Shown here piece by piece: positions 29,061-29,234 of a DNA stretch of 64,000 bases. Each line of letters opens with the position of its first letter. The stretch's first letter is position 1. The position numbers and the translations under genes were made by a program. The notes beneath the pieces are model-generated. The model did not search any database and had not been told where the DNA came from. It was given only the letters and a program-made list of their open reading frames with translations. The DNA comes from Escherichia coli (GTDB taxonomy: Bacteria > Pseudomonadota > Gammaproteobacteria > Enterobacterales > Enterobacteriaceae), in the NCBI RefSeq assembly GCF_044324785.1, contig NZ_CP172127.1; one strand, written 5' to 3'.

Positions 29061-29159
29061 TGAATAAAACCACGAGTTCCAGGTGTGCCTTATTCAGCAC
29101 TGCTAGTGCGAATTTAATAATTTACGGTTTTTATGGGATTTTAGGGATAAACACAAGAA

Positions 29160-29234
29160 TGGTGTCCCCTGCAGGAATCGAACCTGCAATTAGCCCTTAG
29201 GAGGGGCTCGTTATATCCATTTAACTAAGAGGAC
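29160..29234 (-). tRNA. argW: tRNA-Arg (anticodon CCU)
   Basis: Reverse complement reads GTCCTCTTAGTTAAATGGATATAACGAGCCCCTCCTAAGGGCTAATTGCAGGTTCGATTCCTGCAGGGGACACCA, identical to E. coli argW as I recall it, with encoded CCA end. Confidence 0.93.

Follow-up and report, generated by a model that had tools for sequence, protein, structure and literature searches.

In Escherichia coli, the tRNA gene argW is a documented integration hotspot (PMC2951348, PMC3509656, PMC8787464, PMC13054288, PMC9997748), and on this point the original prediction, which had described argW as a known target of islands, agrees with the literature. The att sites of KplE1/CPS-53, HK620 and Sf6 have a 16-nt core in common, ATGGTGTCCCCTGCAG, published as CTGCAGGGGACACCAT (PMC2951348). 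Panis et al. 2012 described a recombination module common to argW-integrating phages, and for modules of the KplE1 type, IntS and TorI bring about precise excision (PMC3509656). For the phage Kapi1, the attB in E. coli KP7/MP1 has been defined experimentally (Pick et al. 2022, PMC8787464): once the 17-bp attB had been deleted in KP7, integration at the site ceased (colonies positive: 19/20 versus 0/24; PMC8787464). Stx2a-converting phages also reside at argW, in clade 8 of O157:H7 and in other STEC (PMC9997748). In phage records of this kind (LC645409 and others), duplications of 63-73 nt are found, whereas the record of phiv205-1 holds a 17-nt attL beside a CPS-53-type integrase. The longer duplicated segment of the Stx2a phages points to a different att/integrase system acting on the same target gene.

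The region between argW and the D-serine genes has likewise been described as a variable argW-dsdCXA island or locus (Moritz & Welch 2006, as cited in PMC13054288, PMC4366372 and PMC7545054), with PAI-CFT073-argW, which bears ipuA/ipuB, as an example. The reported variants match the states found in this study, namely csc genes replacing dsdC and most of dsdX, ipuAB/upaE, prophages and satellites. The locus analysed here, which lies in a 64-kb stretch of E. coli DNA (the window), displays the simplest of these states: a complete dsdCXA locus directly abuts argW.

In the window, dsdA (25221-26552, minus strand) and dsdX (26570-27907, minus strand), both named for D-serine catabolism after the annotation of collinear genomes, are followed by dsdC (28125-29060, plus strand), the LysR-type activator of dsdXA. 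The gene is intact and encodes 311 residues from an ATG at 28125, while the mechanically called open reading frame starts at a GTG at 28119; the product differs from K-12 DsdC by 3 substitutions in 311 residues. Pfam recognises HTH_1 and LysR_substrate on a protein identical to it, and PALP and GntP_permease on the genes neighbouring dsdC on the dsdA/dsdX side, and in the collinear genomes of strains NN5 and 19KM1831 the corresponding gene is annotated as dsdC. Convergent to it lies argW (29160-29234, minus strand), a complete tRNA-Arg(CCU) gene according to ARAGORN (anticodon CCT) and the sole tRNA that this program finds in the 64 kb. Rfam assigns RF00005 (tRNA) to 29163-29234 with 63.4 bits, at a gathering score of 29, and detects no other RNA family over the window. 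The CCA end of argW is encoded at 29160-29162, so that the tRNA gene's 3' end faces the stop codon of dsdC. Upstream of argW follow the conserved flanking gene yfdC (29310-30242, minus strand; formate/nitrite transporter family according to the annotation of collinear genomes), whose protein recurs unchanged in 80,674 blocks of the genome collection, and, beyond it, mlaA (30536-31291, plus strand).

Between the two convergent genes lies a non-coding chromosomal spacer of 99 bp (29061-29159), which confirms the predicted distance of about 100 bp from dsdC to the tRNA 3' end. It holds no open reading frame of at least 50 aa and no consensus promoter-like or terminator-like site, and its predicted fold is not significant (z = -0.63); we do not claim a function for it.

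The core ATGGTGTCCCCTGCAG occurs at 29159-29174 as an exact match, the only one in 64 kb (0.04 expected), where it overlaps the 3' end of the intact tRNA-Arg(CCU) gene flanked by yfdC. Together with A29158, it forms the 17-nt att sequence of Kapi1, AATGGTGTCCCCTGCAG, and is thus identical to the Kapi1 attB over all 17 bp. In the Kapi1 system, the tRNA is intact whether the site is occupied or empty, as it is in the window; the experiments were made in KP7, a strain different from the source of the window. A second copy of the core is absent from the 64 kb even when up to 2 mismatches are allowed, as is a second copy of the last 28 nt of argW with up to 3 mismatches, and direct and inverted repeats around the site are short matches at chance level, none of them a repeat of the tRNA 3' end. 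When IntS, a second IntS-type integrase, a P4-type integrase, the integrase of strain N3 (all four associated with argW) and TorI were searched against the whole window by tblastn, the best E-value was 0.2. The predicted absence of an integrase and of a partial tRNA repeat was thus upheld, and with a single core and neither an integrase homologue nor an RDF homologue in the window, the argW site appears unoccupied, as had been proposed. The phage records with Stx2a match argW of the window with 98.6-100% identity over their duplications; no such phage is present in the window. By inspection of the open reading frames, none of the 56 of at least 150 aa was recognised as an IS transposase, and from the ORF coordinates a fimbrial operon in the window appears intact; on these grounds, Shigella would be an unlikely source.

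The closest point of reference is K-12 MG1655, where the annotated order is yfdC, argW, CPS-53, pawZ (a 15-nt argW fragment), a spacer of 95 bp and dsdC; Panis et al. 2010 describe the same arrangement of CPS-53 and the core (PMC2951348). CPS-53 is a cryptic prophage of 10,215 bp that comprises intS, yfdG to yfdT, ypdJ and torI. The original statement that CPS-53/KpLE1 separates argW from dsdC in K-12 is therefore right as to position, whereas the end of the element is torI and not yfdT. The sequence CTGCAGGGGACACCAT occurs exactly twice in a 17-kb stretch of MG1655, once at each boundary of CPS-53. K-12 and the window share the tRNA gene, the 16-nt core and the yfdC and dsdC flanks; K-12 carries recombined attL and attR sites around a 10.2-kb defective prophage, whereas the window carries the unrecombined attB. 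When CPS-53 is removed from K-12 in silico, the product aligns to positions 28900-29400 of the window as a single segment of 501 bp with 96.2% identity, 15 mismatches and 4 gap positions; with the empty-site strain NN5, its alignment extends over 6.8 kb. A four-way alignment resolves the window into two parts, which equal the K-12 attR flank as far as the core and K-12 attL from the core on. As expected by the original prediction, the spacing between dsdC and argW differs in K-12, where CPS-53 and pawZ intervene and the spacer measures 95 bp, and the source strain is not of K-12 lineage at this locus: CPS-53 and pawZ are missing, and the DNA is 97.8% identical to K-12 toward dsd and 95.7% toward yfdC.

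The two spacers differ by indels of 1 bp and 3 bp and a few substitutions, and the base 5' of the core is A in the window and G in K-12. That the spacer of the window is 4 bp longer than that of K-12 and NN5 might be taken to mark it as what is left of an old, decayed insertion instead of native chromosome. This is highly improbable, as the spacer aligns over its full length with the chromosomal sequence that borders K-12 attR on the outside and contains neither an open reading frame nor an att repeat nor any similarity to phage arms. Moreover, the 99-bp and the 95-bp forms are each found in empty as well as in occupied genomes, for which reason the length difference is best read, from sequence comparison, as a polymorphism of the backbone and not as a scar. 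The 99-bp allele is shared by strain 19KM1831 (99.4%) and by contigs L005-L010 (see below), and empty sites with the same junction are found in divergent lineages, with 95 bp in NN5 and 99 bp in the window and 19KM1831.

The empty state at argW is common, not rare. Among 5,426 complete RefSeq E. coli genomes, the 174-bp interval formed by spacer and tRNA is uninterrupted in 937 (17%), and the 2.2-kb stretch from dsdC over argW to yfdC is contiguous in 910. About 624 genomes have spacer and tRNA in two separate places, implying an insertion that keeps both halves; this number derives from 6,049 places in 5,425 genomes, none of which has more than two. The remainder, about 3,860 genomes when the other groups are subtracted, have a single place that matches no more than part of the interval. 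The spread of matches shows this part to be almost always the tRNA, which is 100% identical in 21/21 tRNA-only genomes among the matches listed; the best place reaches at least 99% identity in 3,792 genomes. In such partially matching genomes, a csc sucrose locus or an ipuAB/upaE island often replaces the spacer.

Integrase DNA of the IntS type is present in 1,864/5,426 genomes. On the yfdC side, three types of integrases adjoin argW in other genomes, with a mutual identity of only 30-45%; besides the IntS type, at least two more make use of argW, one P4-like and one of 388 aa. Some genomes (contig L013, 7155-12933) have a gene with LPD1/LPD5/MuF_C/LPD38 domains and a product of 2,794 aa or more directly adjoining argW, ~220 bp past the yfdC stop codon, in the usual place of an integrase or of dsdC. 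A scan of species-representative genomes for the spacer/tRNA junction yielded a single find, contig NZ_JAHZMP010000156.1 in the assembly of Terrisporobacter mayombei DSM 6539 (486 bp, 0.81x), which displays an empty dsdC-argW junction with 96.3% identity to the window and presumably reflects contamination of this assembly by Escherichia.

Closer relatives were found by exact lookup of the DsdC protein sequence of the window. The allele is shared by 435 blocks of the genome collection, and of the 24 contigs read that encode it, argW is empty in 15 and occupied in 9. One of the empty ones (L006; DAXQIC010000008.1, GCA_042853285.1) matches 6,936 bp of the window with 100% identity and has the same junction, as has L007 at 99.5% identity. 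These data bear on the concern that the junction is chimeric, an argW prophage having been collapsed by the assembler or placed on another contig. Nothing specific speaks for such an artefact beyond the generic risk of draft assemblies, and it is hardly credible: the same junction is present in the independent assembly just mentioned and in the 937 complete genomes, the core is single-copy in the window, and the sequence common to attL and attR measures only 16-24 nt, too short to make an assembly collapse.

Four further contigs, L005, L008, L009 and L010, follow the window with 99.97-100% identity from 25125 as far as 29174-29182, where they part from it; their inserts were seen at the dsdC-proximal ends, from locus position ~4050 on. 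In L008 and L010, homology to the window stops exactly at 29174 and gives way to a K-12-like (KplE1-type) attR arm, with an RDF 100% identical to K-12 TorI; next come prophage genes of the Lar, DUF551 and RecT types. The insert of L009, in which a PemK toxin gene and a capsid gene of the P2 family are seen, suggests a P4-like satellite, and that of L005 is a CP4-like island with CbeA, DUF987, RadC, antirestriction and DUF932 genes. Since near-identical assemblies carry three different inserts at this position, the argW site is in use in the genetic background of the window.

The same data bring up the question whether the site is naive, as originally proposed, or has been cured. A former argW element could have left by Int/RDF-mediated excision, and three different elements in near-identical backgrounds, together with the split of 15/24 empty and 9/24 occupied contigs, suggest frequent turnover; the precise excision of KplE1-type modules with IntS and TorI (PMC3509656) would provide the means. 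Precise excision is scarless, however, and restores exactly the sequence of the window, so that the sequence is identical for a naive and a cured site and the word 'naive' claims more than it can demonstrate. The occurrence of the empty junction in divergent lineages, with both spacer alleles, fits an ancestral empty state equally well. We consider a cured site possible, if rather unlikely.

Whatever its history, the interval very probably constitutes an unoccupied attB at the argW 3' end, set in the native order yfdC, argW, spacer and dsdC; the anatomy, the identity of the core, the collinearity with K-12 lacking CPS-53 and the presence of elements at this position in near-identical genomes are direct observations. 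From the comparative data and the cited experiments, we infer that this copy of attB is competent for recombination. The A before the core and the indels of the spacer are no argument against function, because the experimentally validated attB of Kapi1 (PMC8787464) has the same A variant and because the same spacer allele flanks the integrated elements in L005 and L008-L010. The site could function in the following manner: A tyrosine integrase of the IntS type (KplE1/HK620/Sf6/Kapi1) would pair attP with the 16-17-nt core at the tRNA 3' end, and strand exchange inside the shared core would insert the element, with the phage-borne core rebuilding the tRNA gene's 3' end. The products would be attL, consisting of argW and int, and attR, in which the RDF gene is followed by core, spacer and dsdC. 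Excision with the RDF would regenerate exactly the sequence seen in the window. Since the window holds no element at this place, argW retains the 3' end and the downstream spacer that are its own, and the site is still available.

Among the 5,426 complete RefSeq E. coli genomes, the lineage of the window, possibly cryptic clade I, is without a close relative. The best identity is 98.3% over the dsd locus (25100-29158), 96.9-97.0% over 20000-40000 and 98.6% over 44000-64000 (strain N3), and no tested segment of at least 4 kb exceeds 98.6% to any complete genome. The low identity between 20 and 40 kb could point to a species other than E. coli; part of it is due to a divergent allele of fadL (33093-34439, minus strand; 448 aa), which has 77% amino acid identity and several indels relative to the common E. 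coli FadL; the 33-34 kb bin displays 78-81% DNA identity to 19KM1831 and N3. In the records of the complete genomes, 370 fadL matches fall at 95-99%, 841 at 90-95%, 343 at 80-90% and 3,871 at 60-80%. FadL is annotated as the receptor of phage T2 in K-12, and its divergence may represent a receptor polymorphism. The adjacent yfdF-like open reading frame (31686-32756, minus strand; 356 aa) is situated in DNA of low GC content (0.41-0.44), has only 91-93% DNA identity to K-12 and NN5, varies in length from 343 to 426 aa among genomes and has no Pfam match. Another low-GC segment is the evgS/evgA/emrK region (18000-24000), with a GC content of 0.40-0.42, whereas most of the remaining window has ~0.50-0.55. 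Perhaps, though this is a tentative suggestion, the window stems from a lineage without a close complete-genome representative, whose members, near-identical on the dsdC side, differ only in the state of argW and would offer a natural system for measuring rates of gain and loss at the hotspot; even then, the attB of argW as such would be none other than the known one.

The finding at argW is real, common and already known, and nothing in it is new: it is the documented attB in its unrecombined form, an established state of the variable argW-dsdCXA locus. It may be of use for strain typing and for the choice of hosts for lysogenisation; otherwise, its value lies mainly in correct annotation, and it opens no new question. 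For the organism, the complete dsdCXA locus means that the genes for the use of D-serine are present, and the window is devoid of csc sucrose genes at the argW-dsd locus. The free argW attB could be occupied by phages of the KplE1/HK620/Sf6/Kapi1 type, by P4-like satellites, by CP4-like islands or by Stx2a phages.
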